The notes beneath the pieces are model-generated. The model made no database searches. It was not told where the DNA came from and was given only the letters and a program-made list of their open reading frames with translations. A stretch of 64,000 nt of DNA from Candidatus Woesearchaeota archaeon (GTDB lineage: Archaea; Nanobdellota; Nanobdellia; Woesearchaeales; JAFCFN01), in NCBI GenBank assembly GCA_017608625.1, contig JAFCFN010000006.1:295-64294 (forward strand). Reading direction: 5' to 3'. The translations under genes were made by a program, and so were the position numbers. Positions 5,793-34,426 of this stretch are shown piece after piece; positions within the stretch are counted from its first letter, which is position 1, and each line of letters starts with the position of its first letter.

Positions 5793-6295
5793 GAAAAACA
5801 GAACAAAACTATTTTGGATTGTACTTTTTGCTAGCTGTGATTACAGTTTACATAATCATAGCTATTTTCAAACCAACTGTTCTGACACCAATTTTTAAGT
5901 TTTTAATTTTAATGTTGAAAAGAATAATTCCAATACTTTTTGTAGTTTTTGTATTAATGATTTTAGTGAATTACTTTGTAAGCCCTAAAAATTTGCTTAA
6001 TTATCTTGGTAAAAATGCAGGAATGAAAGGATGGCTAATTGCTATTATAGGAGGAATACTCTCAACAGGACTAATATATGCATGGTACCCTATGCTTAAT
6101 GATTTACAGAAACAAGGTGTTAGAAATAGATTTATAGCGACTTTTCTGTATAATAGAGCAGTAAAACCTGCTTTGTTACCATTGCTCATTTTTTATTTTG
6201 GTTTAATGTACACTCTTGTGCTTACAGTTGTGATGGTAGTTGTCTCAATATTTCAAGGCATTATTGTTGAAAAATTTAGTGAGGCGAAAACATGA
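5789..6295 (+). CDS. permease subunit (COG0701-like, second half)
   Basis: polytopic membrane protein. Confidence 0.4.
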   Translation: MRKTEQNYFGLYFLLAVITVYIIIAIFKPTVLTPIFKFLILMLKRIIPILFVVFVLMILVNYFVSPKNLLNYLGKNAGMKGWLIAIIGGILSTGLIYAWYPMLNDLQKQGVRNRFIATFLYNRAVKPALLPLLIFYFGLMYTLVLTVVMVVVSIFQGIIVEKFSEAKT

Positions 6296-16696: not shown

Positions 16697-16786
16697 CGGG
16701 CCTGAGGAGATTCGAACTCCTGACCTTTACCTATCTTCTATTTAAAGTAGGAGGGTACTGCTCTATCCAGACTGAGCTACAGGCCC
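16697..16786 (-). tRNA. tRNA-Arg(CCU) with 15-nt canonical anticodon-loop intron
   Basis: rc gives GGGCCTG-TA-GCTCAGTCTGGATAGAGC-A-GTACC-CTCCTA[intron]A-GGTAA-AGGTC-AGGAGTTCGAATCTCCT-CAGGCCC-G. Confidence 0.7.
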
Positions 16787-17993: not shown

Positions 17994-18078
17994 AGCCTCA
18001 GGAGGGATTTGAACCCTCGACCTGCTGATTTCTAGCAGAGCTACAAGTCAGCTGCTCTGGCCACTGAGCTACTGAGGC
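17994..18078 (-). tRNA. tRNA-Thr(UGU) with ~12-nt anticodon-loop intron
   Basis: rc gives GCCTCAG-TA-GCTCAGTGGCCAGAGC-A-GCTGA-CTTGTA[GCTCTGCTAGAA]A-TCAGC-AGGTC-GAGGGTTCAAATCCCTC-CTGAGGC-T. Confidence 0.75.
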
Positions 18079-21558: not shown

Positions 21559-21936
21559 CTACTTCTTCTTCATAGCATCAAAAGTAGCTGGCAAATCAAT
21601 TATATATTTGCCATCAGCTAGCTTGAAAACCAAAGGTTCTTTTTTGAATAAATGAACTAAATCCAGTTCATACTTTCCTGGTTTAAGGACTCTTATACTC
21701 TCAAAGTCGAGAACAACTGGCTTTTCTTCATGCTCTTCCTTTCCTATTAGATCAAGAACATCCTTCTCTAGTTCTTGTTTTTGCTTTTCTGTTAGATTAA
21801 TAGTTATTTCTTTGGCTTGCTCTAGTTTTTCTTTTTTAATAAAAAAGAAGAGTCTTGATCCGCAAGAACAGCCTTTGAGAATTTCATTAGCTGTATCATC
21901 ATACAACTTTCCGCATCTTACACACTGGTGTGGCAT
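21559..21936 (-). CDS. Zn-ribbon protein (DUF2072-like)
   Basis: N-terminal 'CVRCG...CSCGS' C4 ribbon, 125 aa. Confidence 0.5.
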   Translation of the reverse strand: MPHQCVRCGKLYDDTANEILKGCSCGSRLFFFIKKEKLEQAKEITINLTEKQKQELEKDVLDLIGKEEHEEKPVVLDFESIRVLKPGKYELDLVHLFKKEPLVFKLADGKYIIDLPATFDAMKKK

Positions 21937-22066
21937 AACCGTAGCCGGTTAACGTCTAGGCGATATTCGATTGCTTCGCAATCGAAATCCCCTGGCCTCG
22001 CTTTGACTTGTCTGCGAGCAAGCGAGCAGACTCGCTTGCAAGTCAGCTCGGCTGTTAACCTCCTCC
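21937..22066 (-). ncRNA. GC-rich structured element between GGAGG and ATG (copy 1, ~130 nt)
   Basis: ~60% GC in 30% GC genome; nested hairpins (GACTTG/CAAGTC, CAAGCGAG/CTCGCTTG, TTCGATTGC/GCAATCGAA); flanking GTTAAC palindromes; 3' 27-mer shared with copy at 43643. Confidence 0.5.
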
Positions 22067-22067
22067 A

Positions 22068-22472
22068 TTATTTCCTCTTTTTCTTAATTTTTCTTCTCTT
22101 TTTTACTTCTTTTGTTAGTAACTCTATTTTCTTTGGATCTTTTTTAATTGATTTGACAACATTTGCAGGTCCAATAATAGTCAACCCTGTTCTATCTCCT
22201 AGTAATGAATTAATTAAACCTTCCTTAAATCTGCTGAACCAAGGAGTATCTTTACTAATGTTAGGATAGATGACACTTAGTTCAATTCCTTTAAATTCTT
22301 TATTTATTTCTTCCATTGTTGCTTTTATTAATTCTGCTTCTTCCTCTTTTTTTAGCCTTCCTTGTAACAACACTATTTTGTTCTCTTTTGCTATATTAAG
22401 CAATTTTCTTATTCTCCCTACAGATGTCAAATCTGCAATTTCATTATAAGGCACAACTTGTAGAGTTACCAT
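22068..22472 (-). CDS. conserved archaeal protein (DUF2073-like), Lys-rich tail
   Basis: 134 aa; sits between small GTPase and Zn-ribbon gene, as in the conserved archaeal triplet. Confidence 0.4.
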   Translation of the reverse strand: MVTLQVVPYNEIADLTSVGRIRKLLNIAKENKIVLLQGRLKKEEEAELIKATMEEINKEFKGIELSVIYPNISKDTPWFSRFKEGLINSLLGDRTGLTIIGPANVVKSIKKDPKKIELLTKEVKKRRKIKKKRK

Positions 22473-22473
22473 G

Positions 22474-23109
22474 TTATTTCACCAATTTGAATAGTTCATC
22501 GTATAATTCTTCAATATTGTTGCCATATTTGGCAGAGATCCCAATAACATTATATTGAGGGAATGCTGATTTTATTTTTCTTATGTTGGCTCTTTTTAGA
22601 TCAATCTTGTTACCAGCAATCAAAACAGGAATTTTCCTTGCTGCTAGATTACCAATTGTTGTGATGTTAACTTGTGAATAAGGATCCTTTGTTGCATCTA
22701 AAACAACAATGACTGCTTCCATTTCATCAAGCCATTTTATAGCTTCAATAACACCTTTTGTTGCTTCTTTTGCTCTTCTTTTGGCTACTGATTTACTTAG
22801 ACCAGCTTTAAGAAAATCTTCATAGTCAATCTTTGTGGCTATTCCAGGTGTGTCAACAACATTAAAGCTCAGCTCTCTGCCATCAGAATTCTTTATAACA
22901 ACATTTTCTTTTATTTTTATCTCTCTTGTCTCATGAGCAATTTTACTGACTTTGCTTAGCTCTTCTCCTAGCCAGTCTTTACAGATTCTATTGGCTAGAG
23001 TTGATTTTCCTCCATTAGGAGGACCATATAATCCTAGTTTAATAGCTCCTCTTCTTTTGAACAGCTTTGCTACAAATTTCTTAAAAAAGTTCTTTAAAAA
23101 AGCAACCAC
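22474..23109 (-). CDS. small P-loop GTPase
   Basis: 'GLYGPPNGGKSTLANRI' Walker A, 'VVDTPG' G3, 'GNKID' G4. Confidence 0.6.
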   Translation of the reverse strand: MVAFLKNFFKKFVAKLFKRRGAIKLGLYGPPNGGKSTLANRICKDWLGEELSKVSKIAHETREIKIKENVVIKNSDGRELSFNVVDTPGIATKIDYEDFLKAGLSKSVAKRRAKEATKGVIEAIKWLDEMEAVIVVLDATKDPYSQVNITTIGNLAARKIPVLIAGNKIDLKRANIRKIKSAFPQYNVIGISAKYGNNIEELYDELFKLVK

Positions 23110-23933: not shown

Positions 23934-25097
23934 TTAAACACTCCTCTTCACAATCAAACTAGTTTTAATGATCTCTTTAGCTTTCTCCAAATCTTTTTTC
24001 TCAACTTTGTTTCTTAACTCTAATCTTGCAGCTGCTTTTGCCAATCTAATTAAACCAATAATCATTCTAGGAGAAACCTCAACTAAGAAATTATTCTCCT
24101 TTTCTTTAAGTTCTTTGCTAAATTCTACAACATCTTTTTGAAAATCTCTTGGAAACTCTACTTTTATTTGTTGAGCATGATCAATATATTCTTTTATGAA
24201 ATTTAAGTCCATCTTATTTACTTTTTTTCTGTCTTGTTCAACAATCTTTTTTGCTATTTCTGAGAATTGAGTTACACCAGGTGTTTTGATTAAGAACACT
24301 AAATGAAACCTTGTTAACAAGGCAGGGTCAAAAGGTATCTGTTTTTTTAGATCCTCAATTCTTACTCCAATGAACTTATCTTTTTTTGGATTAGCAGAAG
24401 CAAGAACATTTACTTTTGCTTCAAATGTATAGTGCTTTCCTCCTTTATTATATGATATAAAACCTTTTTCCATTGCGTTATACAAACTTGCTCTGTCTTC
24501 TTGCTTCATCAGATTTAACTCATCTATTACAGCAATTCCATTATTTGCCATCGGTAATAAACCAGGGATTACATCATTCCCTTTTACTGTAACAGCTAAG
24601 CCTGCTGAGGATGTTCCTGAGCCTAGACCAAATGAAGAGATAGGAGCTAGATCTGTTACTGATTTTATTATATCTGATTTGCCAATCCCTGGATCTCCTA
24701 ATAGTAAGATATGTAGCTGTTCTGCAAATAACTGCAATAACACTGCTTCTTTTACTGTATCTAAACCAGTTATATTTGGTGCAATTAAGTTTAAAATAGT
24801 TGATCTTGCTTTTTTGCTGAAATCCTCAAAAGCCTTTCTTTTATAATGATAATCTATTGTTTTGTTCATTAAATCAACAAAATCAGCAACTCTTTTGTCC
24901 ATAACAGATAACTCAAGAATAGGAAATATCTCATCATAAACAAGGGTTGTGCCTAATCTTGATTGAGAAAAAGATATACTGCCTTCTTTTAGCAGTTTTT
25001 TAACTTTTTTTGCATCTTCTTTATCTAAGATTTCTTTTATTATTTTGAAATTTGCTCTTTTTGTGCCTAACAAAGGCAATAGTTGTTTCCACCCCAT
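23934..25097 (-). CDS. MCM-family AAA+ ATPase lacking canonical N-terminal domain (mini-MCM)
   Basis: Walker A 'LLLGDPGIGKS', Walker B 'IAVIDELNLM', MCM-specific 'YNAMEKGFISYNKGG...VLASANP', Arg finger 'LLTRF'; only 387 aa. Confidence 0.65.
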   Translation of the reverse strand: MGWKQLLPLLGTKRANFKIIKEILDKEDAKKVKKLLKEGSISFSQSRLGTTLVYDEIFPILELSVMDKRVADFVDLMNKTIDYHYKRKAFEDFSKKARSTILNLIAPNITGLDTVKEAVLLQLFAEQLHILLLGDPGIGKSDIIKSVTDLAPISSFGLGSGTSSAGLAVTVKGNDVIPGLLPMANNGIAVIDELNLMKQEDRASLYNAMEKGFISYNKGGKHYTFEAKVNVLASANPKKDKFIGVRIEDLKKQIPFDPALLTRFHLVFLIKTPGVTQFSEIAKKIVEQDRKKVNKMDLNFIKEYIDHAQQIKVEFPRDFQKDVVEFSKELKEKENNFLVEVSPRMIIGLIRLAKAAARLELRNKVEKKDLEKAKEIIKTSLIVKRSV

Positions 25098-25378
25098 ATT
25101 TGCTATTAGAAAGCAGATAAATATAAAGTTTTTGGTGAAAATTTAGTCACTGGTCACTGGACAGGTTTGCGCGTAGGGTATTTAAAGCAGAATAGTTGTT
25201 TTTTTGCTTTGAAAAGCCAAGTTTTGCCTCTTTTTCCTTGGCTTTTTGAGGTGAATAAGATGTACTATGAAAAATTTGATACAGATTATGTAAAGGATTT
25301 GTTTTTGGAGCAGGTTGGGAAGCTGACAACTAGAACAGTTGAGAAACAACTAGTTTTAGAAACATTTATTAATTAAGA

Positions 25379-25406
25379 GCTACACGCGTAATATTATGTG
25401 GGTAGC
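25379..25406. promoter_or_regulatory. imperfect palindrome GCTACACGCGTAATATTATGTGGGTAGC overlapping regulator start codon
   Basis: shares GCGTAATATTA core with perfect palindrome at 26045. Confidence 0.4.
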
Positions 25407-26043
25407 CAAGCTGAGAATTTTTAATGAGAAAAATATTTTAATACAATTGGCAAAGAAGCATGATGTAGTATTGACAGGCTATCCTTTGTCTTATTTTAAG
25501 GAAAAAGGCAAAATTTATTTGTTTGTAACAGGGAATATCTTTGGAGAGGATAAAAACAAAAGACTTTTTCTTCAGGATTTCAAAAAAGATAAAAGAATAA
25601 GAAAAGCAGAAATAAAAAATGATTTTATTATTGCAGAAATGGAGCAACCTTTATTAGTGGAGCCATTCTATGATCCGGAAATTATTCATTTAAAACCTGT
25701 TTTTGTTTCTAATACAGGATATCAGGATTGGGAGATTGCAAGTTGGAGCAGAGATAAATTGGCTAAAGTAGTTGAGGTTTCAAAAAAGATACAAGGAAAG
25801 CTTTTGAAGTTAAAGCAAGAGAAGATTTCTAATATTTCTGTTAGATCTATCTTCCCAGAGCTTACAGCAAAGCAGAAGAAAGCTTTTGAAATAGCTCTGA
25901 AAAATGGCTATTACGAATTTCCAAGAAAAACAGAGCTAAAGGAGTTAGCCAAAATAATGAAAGTTTCTCTTTCTACTTATCAGGCTCATCTAAGAAAGGC
26001 TGAGAAAAAGATTATGACTTTTTCTGCTGGATATCTTAAGTAA
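25396..26043 (+). CDS. DNA-binding protein with C-terminal HTH_10 (Bat-type) domain
   Basis: C-terminal 'KKAFEIALKNGYYEFPRKTELKELAKIMKVSLSTYQAHLRKAEKKI'. Confidence 0.55.
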   Translation: MWVAKLRIFNEKNILIQLAKKHDVVLTGYPLSYFKEKGKIYLFVTGNIFGEDKNKRLFLQDFKKDKRIRKAEIKNDFIIAEMEQPLLVEPFYDPEIIHLKPVFVSNTGYQDWEIASWSRDKLAKVVEVSKKIQGKLLKLKQEKISNISVRSIFPELTAKQKKAFEIALKNGYYEFPRKTELKELAKIMKVSLSTYQAHLRKAEKKIMTFSAGYLK

Positions 26044-26044
26044 A

Positions 26045-26060
26045 GGCGTAATATTACGCC
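26045..26060. promoter_or_regulatory. perfect 16-bp palindrome GGCGTAATATTACGCC directly after regulator stop
   Basis: seen in sequence; terminator and/or operator. Confidence 0.45.
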
Positions 26061-26080
26061 TAAAATTAAAAATATTTGTT

Positions 26081-26563
26081 ATGTTTTACTACGTGATAAT
26101 GACAAATAGAGGTTATAAAATGAAAACAAACTGGAATAATTATGAGTCTGAACTTGAATATATATTAGAAGAAGCACTGCAGAATGTAGGTGTGAAGTTA
26201 AGTGAAGCTAAAATAGATAAAAACCATGATGACTTCAATTATACAAGAATTGCAGAAGCAGGGGATCTTAGGATTGAACATAAAAAATTATTTGATGGTA
26301 GATGTATGTATGAACAATTGGAGTTAGGTAATAAAGAGTATGATGACGGTAAGATTGGTTACATAGTAATGTTTATTAATAACAGTAAGATTGAAGGTAT
26401 ATTTAGTGACGGAGAGGAGGAAAGTGACATATTTAAGGATCAACTTAAAAAGGATTTTATTGAGCAATATCACAGGGCTCCAGAAAACCATGTTGATGCA
26501 GTTATGCTTACAAAATTGGCTGTGAAGAATTTTGCTAAGTATAAGAAAGAGATAGAGAAATGA
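26081..26563 (+). CDS. hypothetical protein (operon gene 1)
   Basis: 160 aa acidic protein; overlaps next ORF by 4 nt. Confidence 0.35.
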   Translation: MFYYVIMTNRGYKMKTNWNNYESELEYILEEALQNVGVKLSEAKIDKNHDDFNYTRIAEAGDLRIEHKKLFDGRCMYEQLELGNKEYDDGKIGYIVMFINNSKIEGIFSDGEEESDIFKDQLKKDFIEQYHRAPENHVDAVMLTKLAVKNFAKYKKEIEK

Positions 26564-27036
26564 AAAAATCACTAAAAGACCTAATACTCGTAGGAGGTTT
26601 GGTTAGTTTACTGAGTGGAACAATTGTAGCTAAAAATGCAACATTGGAGCAGGCAATAAAATATTTTGATCCAGATCAAGAATATGTTGACATATTTTAT
26701 GCTCCAGGAAAACCAAATAAAAAATATCAGTCTTGTGATGAAATTGAATTAAGAATAGGAGATAAAGCATTTATGCTTTATCAAAACCCAAAAACAGGTG
26801 AGATAATCTCAGCATATTTAAGTGAATTTGAACAGTCCTCTGTTCCAGGAATTAAAAAAGCTGAAGGCTGGCTTCCAAAAGATACATTTGTATCAGAAAA
26901 TAAAAAGAAGAAATTTTTAGAGAGGTTTAGTGAAGAAGAACTTAAAAAGGCAAAATATCATTTTTTATCAAGAGAAGAGATGCTAAAGCTAAAGAAACTC
27001 TATGAAAAAGCAAAGAAAAAGATTCTGCTGTGGTAA
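26560..27036 (+). CDS. hypothetical secreted/membrane-anchored protein (operon gene 2)
   Basis: N-terminal hydrophobic segment 'LILVGGLVSLLSGTIVA'. Confidence 0.35.
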   Translation: MKKSLKDLILVGGLVSLLSGTIVAKNATLEQAIKYFDPDQEYVDIFYAPGKPNKKYQSCDEIELRIGDKAFMLYQNPKTGEIISAYLSEFEQSSVPGIKKAEGWLPKDTFVSENKKKKFLERFSEEELKKAKYHFLSREEMLKLKKLYEKAKKKILLW

Positions 27037-27076
27037 ATAAGTAAATATTATAAATATAATTGACTTCTTTATAGTA

Positions 27077-27640
27077 ATGCAACCCAAAATAAAAGAGGAT
27101 CTGCTCTATATTCTGAATGAAGCAATCATTATACTGAAAAGTAAAGAAGAAAGTGATATCTATAAACTAAAAGAGCTTTCTAATCACACTATCCATAATG
27201 CTTCTATTTTTCAAGACCAAGATTCTATTTCAATGGCTGTGATTATTTATTCTGTTTATAAAATTGTGGAAAGGTATGGTTTAACAAGCAGAATTTATGA
27301 AGTAGTTGATGCATACTTAAAAAGAGCAAAAAGATTATTAGACAGAGATGACATAAAAGGATACAGAAAAGCAATCCATGATACATTTAAATATATTTCA
27401 AAGATTGACAAAAGGCTAAAAACATTTATAGAAGAGGTTATAGAAAAAGCAAAGATAACAAAAGGCAGCAAGGTGTTTGAACATGGGATATCTCTAACAA
27501 AAGCTGCTTCTTTGCTAGGAATTTCTGAATGGGACTTAATGAGATATATTGGTAAGACAAATATTATGGATGTGCAATTACCAGCAACAGATGTTAGAAG
27601 AAGATTGATATTTGTAAGGAGGTTATTTGGTTTGAAATGA
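27077..27640 (+). CDS. hypothetical protein with C-terminal HTH-like segment (operon gene 3)
   Basis: 'ISLTKAASLLGISEWDLMRYIG' HTH-like. Confidence 0.35.
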   Translation: MQPKIKEDLLYILNEAIIILKSKEESDIYKLKELSNHTIHNASIFQDQDSISMAVIIYSVYKIVERYGLTSRIYEVVDAYLKRAKRLLDRDDIKGYRKAIHDTFKYISKIDKRLKTFIEEVIEKAKITKGSKVFEHGISLTKAASLLGISEWDLMRYIGKTNIMDVQLPATDVRRRLIFVRRLFGLK

Positions 27641-27987
27641 GCAAATTAAAATTATACGGCATAAGCAAACAAGAGAATAGAGTCCACTTTAGGCTTGGAA
27701 AAAAACAAGCATTTCTTGATGTATTTAGAAAAATTTTGTTAAGATTTGGTTTTTGGGATGCAAGGTATTGGCATTATGACGAAATAAAAGATAAAGATGA
27801 TAAAATAAATAATTTAACTGATTTTTGTGATCATCTTCAGAATGAAAAATATGACATCGATATAATTTTTGGTAAGAAAAGAATCATTGTTATAGTAAGA
27901 GCCAAACAAAAAGACAAAGATAAGTTTATTAAAGAATTAAATAAATTCTGCGAGTGGGCAAAAATTAGGAGAAGATTAAAATGGTGA
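27637..27987 (+). CDS. hypothetical protein (operon gene 4)
   Basis: 116 aa, Trp-rich, overlaps neighbours. Confidence 0.3.
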   Translation: MSKLKLYGISKQENRVHFRLGKKQAFLDVFRKILLRFGFWDARYWHYDEIKDKDDKINNLTDFCDHLQNEKYDIDIIFGKKRIIVIVRAKQKDKDKFIKELNKFCEWAKIRRRLKW

Positions 27988-28673
27988 ACAAGATCTTAAT
28001 CTTTAATACAGGACCGATAATTAGTCTAACAATGAATAATTTGCTTTGGCTATTAAAACCTCTTAAAAGACAATTTCAAGGCAAATTCGTAATTCCAAAA
28101 GCAGTTAAAAGAGAATTGATAGACAAACCATTTAAAATAAAACGTTTCAAATTTGAAGCATTGCAAGTGTTGCATTACATCAATAATAATACTTTAGAAG
28201 TAGTGGATAAAAGAGAAATAACAAAAAAAGCTGAAAAGATTCTAAGTATAGCTAACAAGTGCTTTAGGGCTCATGGTAAGAATATAGAGATAATACACTA
28301 TGCAGAAGCATCAACACTTGCAACTGCTTTGGTTTTGGGAGCAGATGCTTTGTGTGTGGATGAAAGAACAACAAGACTATTAATAGAAGATCCAGCAAGA
28401 TTATCAAAAATCTTAAGTAAAAAATTACATACAAAAATAAAAGTGAACAGTAAAAATCTAAAAGAGATTAAAAAAGAAGTAAAGGGGATTAAATTAATCA
28501 GATCAGCAGAATTAGTTGTAATTGCTTATGAGTTGGGTTTATTGGATAATTATGTAAAACATACATCAATATCAAAAAATGAATTGCTTGATTCAGTTCT
28601 GTGGGGAGTTAAGTTGGATGGCTGTGCTATATCTGAGAAAGAGATAGAACAGATAATCAAGCTAGAGAAATAA
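27981..28673 (+). CDS. PIN-like domain protein with C-terminal extension (operon gene 5)
   Basis: 'KILIFNTGPII' first strand (Asn in place of first Asp), 'KFVIPKAVKRELID', 'ATALVLGADALCVDERT' VapC-like C motif. Confidence 0.45.
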   Translation: MVNKILIFNTGPIISLTMNNLLWLLKPLKRQFQGKFVIPKAVKRELIDKPFKIKRFKFEALQVLHYINNNTLEVVDKREITKKAEKILSIANKCFRAHGKNIEIIHYAEASTLATALVLGADALCVDERTTRLLIEDPARLSKILSKKLHTKIKVNSKNLKEIKKEVKGIKLIRSAELVVIAYELGLLDNYVKHTSISKNELLDSVLWGVKLDGCAISEKEIEQIIKLEK

Positions 28674-28710
28674 AAAGTTTTTTATAGTTGAAAAATTAGA
28701 ATAAGATAAA

Positions 28711-28974
28711 ATGGGTTTATTTGGACCAAGCGTAAAAGCTGTAATTAAGGAAAGCAAAGAATTTTATGCTGAATTAGCAAGAATGCCTTATCAGTTAAGA
28801 CAGATTGAAAGAACAAATTTTGCTCAATATAAAGAAATAAAAACAAAATTGAAACATATGATAAATAAATGTGCAGAGATGTTAAAGAGATTAGCAATAA
28901 AAGAGAGTGAAATTGAAGAATTAACAAAATATTTGAGAATATTTCATAATATATATAAAAGAAATTTTACTTAA
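28711..28974 (+). CDS. hypothetical small protein (operon gene 6)
   Basis: 87 aa helical. Confidence 0.3.
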   Translation: MGLFGPSVKAVIKESKEFYAELARMPYQLRQIERTNFAQYKEIKTKLKHMINKCAEMLKRLAIKESEIEELTKYLRIFHNIYKRNFT

Positions 28975-29791: not shown

Positions 29792-31082
29792 ATGTTGTTT
29801 GCACATCTAGCAGATTGTCATATAGGATCTTGGAGAGATGAAAAACTAAAGCATTTGAATACAGAGGCGTTTCTTAAAGCAACTCAAATGTGCATGGATA
29901 AAAAGGTTGATTTTATTCTTATATCAGGAGACTTGTTTAATACTTCTCTGCCTTCTGTTGATAATCTAAAAACAATTGTTGGAAGATTAAAGGAATTAAA
30001 AGACAATAATATTCCAGTTTATATTATTGCTGGCTCTCATGATTTTTCTCCATCAGGCAAAACAATTCTAGATGTTCTGGAAAAAGCTGATTTAGTAAGG
30101 AATGTATTTCAAGGAGAAGTTGAGGAAGGTAAACTAAAGCTAAAATTCACAATTGATGAAAAAACAGGAGCAAAAATAACAGGAATAATAGGCAAGAAAG
30201 GAATGTTGGACAGAACATATTATGAACAATTAGATAAAACCGATCTAGAAAAAGAAGATGGCTACAAGATTTTTATGTTTCATACTGCTTTGAGTGAATT
30301 CAAACCAAAAAATCTTGAACAAATGGAGTCTGCTCCACTATCATTTTTACCAAAAAACTTTAATTATTATGCAGGAACCAAAAAATCTTGAACAAATGGA
30401 GTCTGCTCCACTATCATTTTTACCAAAAAACTTTAATTATTATGCAGGGGGGCATGTTCATTATATTTTTAATAAAAAAGAACCTAATTATGGTATGATA
30501 GCTTATCCAGGTTCTTTAAGTCCAACTAATTTTAAGGAGCTAGAAGAAGGTACTCATGGTTTTTATTTTGTTGATAATGACAAAATAGAGTTTGAGAACA
30601 TACAAGTTTATAATGTTTTTTCTATAAATATTGATTGTGAGAACAAAACTCCTCAAGAGGTTGAGGAGGAAATCAAAAAGGAAATAGAAGATAAAGAGTT
30701 CATAAATACAATAGTAACCATAAGGTTACAAGGTTGTCTAAAACAAGGAAAGCCTTCTGACATTAACTTTAAAGAAATATTTTCTATGCTTTATGATAAA
30801 TCAGCTTATTTTGTTATGAGAAACACATCTGCTTTAACATCAAAAGAATTTCAGGAAGTTGAGATTAATGTAGAGCCAAGTGAAAATATGGAAGAGGATT
30901 TAATCAAAGAGCATGTTGGACAGGTGCCTCTATTTGGATTAGATAAAGAAAAAGAGACAGAGTTAACAAAAAGATTAATGAGGATACTTCAGCAGGAAAA
31001 ACAAGAAGGAGAAACAAGAGCTGTTTTTGAAGAAAGAATCAAAAAAGATTTAAATATAATATTAAAACAACTAGGGATCTGA
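29792..31082 (+). pseudogene. mre11: Mre11-like DNA repair nuclease, reading frame broken by 73-bp tandem duplication
   Basis: phosphoesterase motifs 'HLADCHIG', 'GDLFN', 'AGSHD', 'GGHVH'; ORFs 29792..30391 and 30294..31082 join if one repeat copy removed. Confidence 0.65.
30303..30448. repeat. perfect 73-bp tandem duplication (2 copies) inside mre11
   Basis: aaccaaaaaatcttgaacaaatggagtctgctccactatcatttttaccaaaaaactttaattattatgcagg x2. Confidence 0.9.
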
Positions 31083-33849: not shown

Positions 33850-34426
33850 ACTGAAATTAAAACAAAGAGAATTTATAAAGCTTTTGGCATCTCCTAAAAA
33901 CAGAGTTTTTGAGGTGATGAGAAATCCGATGTTAAATAAAGTGACCAAGCATTATTTCTGCTAATCCCTGTTATGCGTTTTTTCTGTAAGAAAAAATGCT
34001 GAAGCGAAGCAGAGGCAGTGTGGCGCAGGGCAAAGTTTAATATCTATATGATTCTGGAATAGTATATGGTGGAGAAGGCAGTGGTGATTGCATTGGTTTA
34101 ATAGGATATTTTCTTACTAACTTCATTATCTCTTCAAAATTAGCTAAAGTTTCTTGTGCCTTTTTCCAGCTTTGAGAATCTTTTAATTTTTCTTCTATTG
34201 TTTTCATAAATCCTATTAGACACAGCTAATATAAAAAAATTTTGCCCCAGTAATTTATAATCTAAAAGAGTTATTAATAAAAATCCAAAACCCTGAAACT
34301 GCCAAATTTTGGCTCTAGAAGCCTTCTCCCCTTAAAATTTAATAGAAAACTATTTAAATAAAGCCAGTTTTCTTTTTAATAAAGAAAAGAGCTTTTTCTG
34401 CTCTGATTAAACTAAAAATAGCCTAA

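Follow-up and report, generated by a model that had tools for sequence, protein, structure and literature searches.

The stretch of DNA analyzed here, which we call the window, comprises 64,000 nucleotides (nt) of contig JAFCFN010000006.1 from the Candidatus Woesearchaeota archaeon assembly GCA_017608625.1 (positions 295 to 64,294 of the forward strand). It is AT-rich, with a GC content of about 31%, it is nearly identical to metagenome contigs from the Joint Genome Institute (JGI), and the closest named relatives of the proteins that it encodes are found in Candidatus Woesearchaeota genomes. Our subject is a run of genes at 25260-28974, every one of which lies on the plus strand, and within it a pair of genes, here ORF4 and ORF6, that encode a helix-turn-helix (HTH) protein and a PIN-domain protein. 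Evidence of several kinds suggests that this run is probably not one operon and is instead a composite of at least three layers, namely the ORF4-ORF6 unit, a regulator cassette built around the HTH_10 gene ORF1, and the small gene ORF7.

The locus begins with a small open reading frame (smORF), ORF0 (25260-25376, 38 amino acids [aa]), which is followed by the HTH_10 regulator gene ORF1 (25396-26043, 215 aa). ORF2 encodes 147 aa when read from the start codon that is preceded by an AGAGGT Shine-Dalgarno sequence (26120-26563), and its longest reading frame begins at 26081. The remaining genes are ORF3 (26560-27036, 158 aa), ORF4, which encodes the partner of the PIN protein (27077-27640, 187 aa), ORF5 (27637-27987, 116 aa), ORF6, which encodes the PIN protein itself (27981-28673, 230 aa), and ORF7 (28711-28974), whose product of 87 aa is helical. 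A first-pass annotation of this DNA had described ORF1 to ORF7 as seven co-directional genes, and all seven are present on the plus strand as described; the list was incomplete in that the eighth gene, the conserved ORF0, was overlooked. The same annotation had joined the six genes after the regulator by overlaps of 4-8 nt. Overlaps indeed occur at three of the six junctions (4 nt at ORF2/ORF3, 4 nt at ORF4/ORF5, and 7 nt at ORF5/ORF6), but the other three are gaps of 37-76 nt, that is, 37-76 nt between ORF1 and ORF2 depending on the start of ORF2, 40 nt between ORF3 and ORF4, and 37 nt between ORF6 and ORF7. A TATA-like element is present in each of these three intergenic gaps. Searches of PHROGs and NCBIfam gave no significant match for any of the seven ORFs.

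The PIN protein belongs to a large and uniform family. More than 1135 homologs of ORF6 were found at 52-79% identity, with lengths of about 228-235 aa; those outside the closest relatives are 52-60% identical. For comparison of gene neighborhoods we used 86 related loci that carry ORF6 relatives (denoted below by L numbers; fetched loci total roughly 0.95 Mb), across which identity to ORF6 is 49-78%. The AlphaFold2 (AF2) model of ORF6, with a predicted local distance difference test (pLDDT) score of 93.4, has a PIN fold, and the top matches of a Foldseek search of the PDB are VapC toxins (best E = 7e-4, probability 1.0). AF2 and Foldseek together confirm the PIN-like fold with a C-terminal extension that had been read from the sequence; the extension is helical, and there is in addition an insertion of about 35 aa. 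Conserved acidic residues of the family are Asp9, Glu45, Glu109, Asp127, and Glu128. ORF6 follows the order of motifs in COG2405 proteins (FDTGP, VKxEL, YAE, VDERTTR, and a C-terminal helical segment). Precomputed database matches assign DUF3368 (PF11848) to ORF6 and most of its homologs. The PADLOC model PDC-S70 matches ORF6 with E = 4.4e-9 (residues 5-133 against model positions 2-104 of 162), and PDC-S70 models are matched by 29 of 30 members of the ORF6 family (best E = 1.2e-9), both scored without the coverage cut-offs of PADLOC. PDB sequence searches with the ORF4 and ORF6 profiles returned nothing significant and did not recover PDB 2mdt, which is listed under the COG2405 cluster (PMC5499597).

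The partner protein is similarly uniform, with 490 ORF4 homologs of 179-187 aa. Its C-terminal HTH, first noticed as an HTH-like segment, is confirmed by profile searches, in which 22 of 31 family members match UPF0175 (PF03683; best E = 3e-7). UPF0175/COG2886 is described as an HTH antitoxin and is reported exclusively with COG2405/DUF3368 PINs (PMC5499597, PMC2701414). The N-terminal part of ORF4 is a confident six-helix bundle in the AF2 model and carries the strongly conserved motif LSNHTIHNASIFQD; for this domain of about 130 aa there was no Pfam match, and neither a sequence nor a fold match in the PDB. With its conserved polar residues, the domain is a defined target for structural and biochemical studies in organisms that have very few characterized proteins.

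The distribution of the pair is the main reason to set it apart from its surroundings. A scan of one genome per species found ORF6 relatives in 365 species genomes. Listed records with names more specific than "archaeon" are all from Woesearchaeota, Nanoarchaeia, or Nanoarchaeota, with the exception of a set labeled "uncultured Methanosarcinales", records that are apparently mislabeled. In 85 of the 86 loci the gene immediately before the PIN gene is an ORF4 homolog, and of the 72 loci in which the junction was measured, 61 have a 4-nt ATGA overlap. The genes arvABC/oapABC, which encode among others OapA, are found divergently upstream of the pair in 31 of the 59 loci with enough flanking sequence, and mre11 is found downstream in 21 of 36, with orc1 also near. 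OapA, also named ArvA, is a GTPase that forms vesicles, and it is regarded as vertically inherited in DPANN archaea (PMC10927574). In pairwise distances, ORF4 and ORF6 track OapA and OapB about as closely as OapA tracks OapB (Spearman 0.22-0.46, compared with 0.35 for OapA against OapB; Mantel p 0.001-0.012). Furthermore, the ORF6 profile found no relative among the 2.9 million viral contigs of IMG/VR. The conserved neighbors of the pair (arvABC, MCM, mre11, and orc1) are housekeeping genes and not defense genes, and MazE-ParE genes are found nearby in L007 only.

The pair is thus no accessory element; it recurs across Woesearchaeota, its two genes adjacent and its synteny kept. Its distribution is unlike that of mobile, patchy toxin-antitoxin loci, with neighbors shared in about half of the informative loci, and it appears to be fixed and vertically inherited across Woesearchaeota. 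Within the whole locus, ORF4 and ORF6 keep their order with very strong conservation, and the order of the remaining five genes is not found in other genomes. The proposal that the whole run is an accessory module fits the left part (smORF, HTH_10 gene, ORF2, and ORF3), which behaves like a variable islet, but not the core. In the window the oapC-oapB-oapA (arvCBA) operon, a small vesicle-forming GTPase system described in Haloferax, is located at 21559-23109 on the minus strand; the arrangement of oapABC head-to-head with the pair seen in 31 of 59 loci elsewhere is here interrupted by a gene for a TrmB-family regulator, a 387-aa MCM gene, and the variable islet.

ORF4 also has a predicted promoter of its own. 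At 60 of 78 non-redundant orthologous loci, a TATA-like octamer starts 28-32 nt before the ATG of ORF4; in the window it is TTATAAAT (27048-27055, plus strand), which starts 29 nt before the ATG. This conserved spacing suggests that the pair is an independent, probably leaderless, transcription unit. No conserved palindrome was found between the ORF4 TATA and the ATG in the 78 loci, where there are only the B recognition element (BRE) and TATA element and a loose TTTCTCCA-like stretch. Shine-Dalgarno sequences precede ORF0, ORF2, ORF5, and ORF6, and TATA spacing is found instead at ORF1, ORF4, and ORF7, a pattern that suggests about four or five transcription units in the locus.

We propose that ORF4 followed by ORF6 is an ancient two-gene unit, which would be translationally coupled and expressed from its own predicted promoter. 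By analogy with the antitoxins of VapC-type PINs, ORF4 probably binds ORF6 and so restrains or targets a metal-dependent ribonuclease activity, and its HTH may also contact DNA or RNA. The architecture would derive from a toxin-antitoxin pair that now serves as a resident cellular gene pair rather than as a mobile addiction or defense cassette.

The comparison with known systems separates what is familiar from what is not. The COG2886 (UPF0175, PF03683) and COG2405 (DUF3368, PF11848) PIN pair has been predicted to be a toxin-antitoxin system of type II (Makarova 2009, PMC2701414; Matelska 2017, PMC5499597). As in that system, a VapC-group PIN is preceded on the same strand by a UPF0175-type HTH protein, with overlapping stop and start codons. 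The pair described here differs in the extra helical domain of about 130 aa in ORF4, in the insertion of about 35 aa and the C-terminal extension of ORF6, and in its occurrence at one syntenic locus across an archaeal clade rather than as patchy, multi-copy loci; in this genome only, there is a third gene between the partners and an Asn in place of a catalytic Asp. The statement that the locus matched no named system was wrong for the core, where ORF4 and ORF6 have the COG2886/UPF0175 and COG2405/DUF3368-PIN architecture and ORF6 also matches PDC-S70. PDC-S70 is a single-gene PIN-nuclease defense candidate, of likely archaeal origin and enriched in Archaea (PMC12988326), whose own antiviral activity has not been validated. 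The ORF6 match spans about 63% of the PDC-S70 model and 56% of the protein; the ORF6 gene, unlike a single-gene system, is always paired with ORF4, and its conserved neighbors are not defense genes. The best structural matches to the ORF6 model are in VapBC complexes, including VapBC15 of M. tuberculosis (PDB 4chg) and VapC of Shigella (PDB 3tnd), a likeness that suggests a metal-dependent ribonuclease restrained by a DNA-binding partner encoded upstream. Identity to these proteins is 8-18%, however, with a template modeling score (TM-score) of about 0.4 when normalized to the query, which has extra elements, and the partner ORF4 is not of the AbrB, ribbon-helix-helix (RHH), or Phd type. What is known, therefore, is the toxin-antitoxin-like UPF0175/PIN architecture; what is new is its enlarged, clade-wide form and its state in this genome.

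That state is unusual in two respects. First, ORF5 lies between ORF4 and ORF6 in this genome only and is not found at that position in the 86 loci. ORF5 is one of a family of short proteins (about 105-125 aa), and an exhaustive search gave 131 of their representative clusters at E<=1e-3, or 19 with the stricter limit E<=1e-10, with the consensus MKKLKL.G...R..F...K.Q.F...YDID.F.G..KIILV.R; the family has no Pfam match and ORF5 has no relatives in viral contigs. Its relatives are found in unrelated contexts, such as L090, where the copy is located between genes for an ArsR-type regulator and a class-V aminotransferase. Second, the PIN domain has Asn9 (codon AAT, 28005-28007, plus strand) where its first catalytic Asp is expected. 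This replacement had been noticed in the first-pass annotation, and it proves to be unique to this protein: 86 of the 86 loci have Asp there, as do 108 of the 109 family proteins whose N-terminal motif is recognizable. A sequencing error is unlikely, because the same protein sequence was seen on contigs from several samples. Equivalent Asp-to-Asn mutants of VapC are standard inactive forms, and structures of such mutants are among the Foldseek matches of ORF6 (e.g., 5ed0). Judged from the Asn at the first catalytic Asp and the ORF5 insertion, the ORF6 nuclease is probably weakened or inactive in this genome. Together, the insertion and the active-site change in this single genome suggest that disturbed ORF4:ORF6 coupling may select for a weaker nuclease, which would imply that the PIN protein is harmful when unbalanced. 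The co-occurrence of the two changes in one genome is a natural experiment on the toxicity of a PIN protein whose partner is out of balance.

The same co-occurrence would be expected if ORF4-ORF6 were a selfish module still at work, either against viruses or as a type II toxin-antitoxin system (a UPF0175 antitoxin with a COG2405 PIN toxin, equivalent to PDC-S70), widespread in general and decaying in this genome, since the active-site change is found only where coupling is disrupted and would follow from the toxicity of an unbalanced PIN. The family relationships fit such a module (PMC5499597, PMC2701414, PMC12988326), as do the antitoxin-first order and the tight ATGA overlap. We nevertheless consider this explanation unlikely. 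The chromosomal position of the pair is fixed, with neighbors shared in about half of the informative loci; the proteins are of uniform length and 49-78% identical across the fetched loci; their divergence co-varies with that of vertically inherited neighbors; and the family was not found in viral contigs. In addition, both proteins far exceed the sizes of the canonical pair (187 aa compared with a UPF0175 model of 75 positions, and 230 aa compared with PDC-S70 models of 125-162 positions), and ORF4 carries the conserved extra domain.

It is also conceivable, though in our view quite unlikely, that the pair was domesticated from a toxin-antitoxin system for a core function of Woesearchaeota and is neither an addiction module nor a virus defense. 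If so, the pair could be tied in function to the divergently transcribed ArvABC vesicle-GTPase operon, for example by processing RNA or choosing which RNA enters vesicles, or else to transactions of DNA close to the replication origin; the N-terminal bundle of ORF4, rich in His and Asp, would represent a new domain for sensing or metal binding; and part of the enrichment of PDC-S70 in DPANN archaea would represent a resident gene and not immunity.

We favor the composite locus with a resident, vertically inherited ORF4-ORF6 unit of toxin-antitoxin-like architecture, and several observations weigh against this reading. The window ORF4 scores 17 bits against UPF0175, below the gathering threshold of 27.9, and hmmscan against the current Pfam-A found no DUF3368 match for ORF6 or for 30 family members. 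The distance correlations with OapA and OapB are only moderate, and genuine toxin-antitoxin genes are found near the pair in relatives (L007). An Asp-to-Asn change seen only here would be surprising if the enzyme were indispensable. Finally, the assignment of ORF2, ORF3, and ORF7 as lineage-specific is provisional, as their relatives were sought among the 86 related loci (and, for ORF2, also in IMG/VR).

With these points in mind, the pair is best seen as an example of a toxin-antitoxin architecture that has joined the stable gene set of a lineage. Surveys of archaeal immunity count PIN-only matches such as PDC-S70 as defense candidates enriched in DPANN (PMC12988326), and the fixed and syntenic position of a PDC-S70-like PIN, always with its specific partner across Woesearchaeota, suggests that some of these counts reflect a resident gene pair.

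The second layer of the locus is centered on ORF1. Residues 156-208 of its product are an HTH_10 domain (PF04967; Pfam E = 7.3e-19, 67.8 bits compared with a cut-off of 23.1), so that the HTH regulator proposed for this gene is confirmed. Residues 1-150 gave no domain match in Pfam, NCBIfam, or a PDB sequence search, and no GAF, PAS, or other recognized sensor was detected. Archaeal regulators with HTH_10 include Bat and DmsR of haloarchaea. ORF1 shares with these regulators the C-terminal HTH_10 domain and the location of its gene beside the genes that it presumably controls; it differs from the Bat type in having no recognized sensor, in that its host is a DPANN archaeon, and in that its putative binding sites are recognized by their conservation. 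Orthologs of ORF1 are 76% identical in L008 and 73% identical in L093, and a 53-aa HTH_10 remnant is found in L007 and L010. Among the other loci, L008 is the only one in which a full-length HTH_10 gene adjoins the ORF4-ORF6 pair.

ORF1 is flanked by two operator-like sites. The downstream site AGGCGTAATATTACGCCT (26044-26061) begins 1 nt past the TAA stop codon. It had been described as a perfect palindrome of 16 bp; it is indeed perfect, but its length is 18 bp. The imperfect palindrome claimed over the start of ORF1 is also confirmed: the upstream site CGTAATATTATG (25387-25398) overlaps both the start codon and the predicted transcription start, its core CGTAATATTATG agrees with the palindromic 12-mer at 11 of 12 positions (one mismatch), and its extended arms (25379-25406) are 82% complementary. 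Within the 64-kb window GCGTAATATTA occurs only at these two sites, and elsewhere in the fetched loci there is only one occurrence of the 10-mer motif. Perfect palindromes of at least 16 bp are no more frequent in the window than chance would give (3 observed compared with 2.67 expected from shuffles), and palindrome statistics alone are thus unremarkable; the significance of the sites comes from their conservation in three species. In the window, L008, and L093 both sites are at the same positions, with flanking spacers that vary. Upstream, the invariant elements are the block TTTATTAATTAA and, after a variable spacer, ACGTAAT(A/G)TTATG; the non-coding half of this site, CGTAAT, is invariant in all three while the adjacent spacer varies. 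Downstream, AAGCGTAATATTACGCCTAAA is invariant. A mobile single-gene cassette marked by GCGTAATATTA as a direct repeat was considered and rejected, given that each copy has a promoter-like position and the downstream one forms a palindrome by itself.

The placement of both sites relative to promoters is consistent with control by ORF1. The upstream site sits between the ORF1 ATG and a putative TATA-like box, TTTATTAA (25365-25372, plus strand), which starts 31 nt before the ATG in a leaderless geometry. The interval between TATA box and ATG is a typical place where archaeal repressors block polymerase recruitment, and the position of the upstream site is therefore suited to autorepression. The downstream palindrome lies directly upstream of the AT-rich TATA-like stretch of the following gene. 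We propose that the ORF1 protein may repress its own gene through the putative site over its start and that it may control the promoter of the adjacent cargo through the 18-bp palindrome, a putative operator. Autoregulation together with downstream control had been thought plausible in the first-pass annotation; the two sites conserved in three species fit this idea, in the case of downstream control for the next gene. From the conserved arrangement we conclude that ORF1 and the two CGTAATATTA(C/T)G sites, as predicted operators, form a real local regulator cassette in a variable islet. It would be a tidy but unremarkable local regulator with conserved operator-like sites and exchangeable downstream genes.

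The same two palindromes could also act as RNA hairpins, of which the upstream one would mask the start codon and the downstream one would be a terminator or stabilizer at the 3' end of ORF1. RNA folding gives -12.4 and -10.1 kcal/mol for the two sites, the upstream hairpin buries the AUG, and the downstream hairpin begins 1 nt past the ORF1 stop codon. However, the two sites share the same sequence of 10-12 nt and not just the ability to pair, which a common DNA-binding protein would need and a hairpin would not. Compensatory changes are absent among the three species, and by inspection the upstream hairpin does not keep its outer stem in L008 or L093. There is also no T-run directly after the downstream hairpin, and the upstream hairpin would be mostly untranscribed if the ORF1 mRNA is leaderless. 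An Rfam scan of the window found three tRNAs only, with no family match at the palindromes. Because the sites share their sequence and show no compensatory changes in three species, we regard RNA hairpins as very unlikely and prefer the operator interpretation.

That all seven genes form one accessory operon, defense or toxin-like, switched by the HTH_10 protein through both palindromes is highly improbable, for although the genes are co-directional with three overlapping junctions, ORF1 and both sites are conserved, the PIN protein has a PADLOC match (the candidate PDC-S70), and toxin-antitoxin genes are present at the same spot in relatives, gene order is conserved for ORF4-ORF6 only, HTH_10 accompanies the pair in just two other examined species (in one of them as a mere 53-aa remnant), ORF4 has its own conserved promoter geometry, and the GCGTAATATTA motif flanks ORF1 only and was not found before ORF4 or ORF7. 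The single, tightly coupled operon of the first-pass annotation is accordingly not supported, given this restricted order and the separate TATA-like boxes of ORF1, ORF4, and ORF7.

Returning to the regulator cassette within the composite locus, we propose that it is lineage-specific and would consist of the smORF, the HTH_10 gene, and the two sites, with ORF2-ORF3 as its cargo in this genome. The smORF begins MYYEKFDTDYVKDLF... (MYYEKF...) and has a GAGGTGA Shine-Dalgarno sequence upstream. Homologs of 37-38 aa are encoded at the same position in L008 (5890-6003, E = 1.7e-8) and L007 (4395-4670, E = 2.8e-10), and the DNA alignment has a pattern of synonymous and conservative changes. In L007 the smORF is followed by MazE-ParE and not by HTH_10. 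A hairpin with a perfect 10-bp stem, AAAAGCCAAG/CTTGGCTTTT (25212-25246, plus strand), is located just upstream of the smORF Shine-Dalgarno sequence, and L008 has a hairpin, AAGCC-TTCG-GGCTT, at the equivalent place (about 5862-5880), such that the structure is kept and the sequence is different. This hairpin could terminate a divergent transcript or belong to a 5' untranslated region (UTR). The intergenic region between MCM and the smORF in L008 (5466-5890) is about 420 nt long and contains unusual GC-rich segments, compared with about 160 nt in the window; it may be a non-coding RNA or the remnant of an insertion.

On the other side of the cassette, conservation extends through the intergenic region and ends at the next gene. 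About 60-75 nt past the palindrome, as far as the next ATG, remain 82-87% identical, and the gene that then follows is non-homologous between species: ORF2 in the window, genes for proteins of 130 aa and 112 aa in L008, and a weakly C39-peptidase-like gene in L093. The difference in the following gene suggests that the cassette provides a slot, with promoter and operator, for changeable cargo. In L007 (4721-5435) the cassette slot is occupied by MazE-ParE followed by the 53-aa HTH_10 remnant, and in L093 (1-88) a frame with what by eye is a RelE/ParE-like C-terminus lies just upstream of HTH_10. These arrangements would mark the slot beside the HTH_10 cassette as an insertion hot spot. The cargo genes of the window have few relatives. 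ORF2 had none in the 86 related loci or IMG/VR and no family match. ORF3 has an N-terminal hydrophobic segment, LILVGGLVSLLSGTIVA, which reads as a signal or membrane anchor and agrees with the earlier description of one product as membrane-anchored; its only homolog in the 86 loci is in L008, at 32% identity.

The third layer, ORF7, is preceded by a putative TATA-like box, TTTTTATA (28679-28686, plus strand), which starts 32 nt before its ATG and overlaps a T-run past the ORF6 stop codon. Homologs directly after the PIN gene are found in L009 (47% identity) and L008 (31%), and no homolog was detected in the remaining loci, even by profile. In close relatives ORF3 and ORF7 are 31-47% identical, compared with 70-78% for neighboring genes. 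ORF7 would be a fast-evolving small gene with its own predicted promoter, and we provisionally consider ORF2, ORF3, and ORF7 to be lineage-specific.

The location of the run beside a mini-MCM and a disrupted mre11, as first annotated, is correct. The MCM gene (23934-25097, minus strand) encodes a protein of 387 aa with P-loop and lid domains only and no N-terminal/OB domain. A short MCM is found at the same position in 10 related loci, which indicates a stable paralog and not a fragment. On the other side, mre11 (29792-31082) is split by a 73-bp tandem duplication at 30303-30448 in this assembly only. The JGI contigs L001-L003, which are from the same population, have no duplication and encode an intact Mre11 of 405 aa, and the duplication is probably an assembly artifact or a minor variant.

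Two further observations concern the wider window. A segment of 45 nt (33972-34016), intergenic between gyrB and the gene for seryl-tRNA synthetase, is present in the window and missing from L001; short inverted repeats spaced 102 nt apart are found near this segment, orc1 is adjacent, and the region could be part of a replication origin. Additionally, two tRNA genes on the minus strand (16697-16786 and 17994-18078) are unusually long, at 90 and 85 nt, and ARAGORN assigned a four-base anticodon to one of them; both probably contain archaeal introns.

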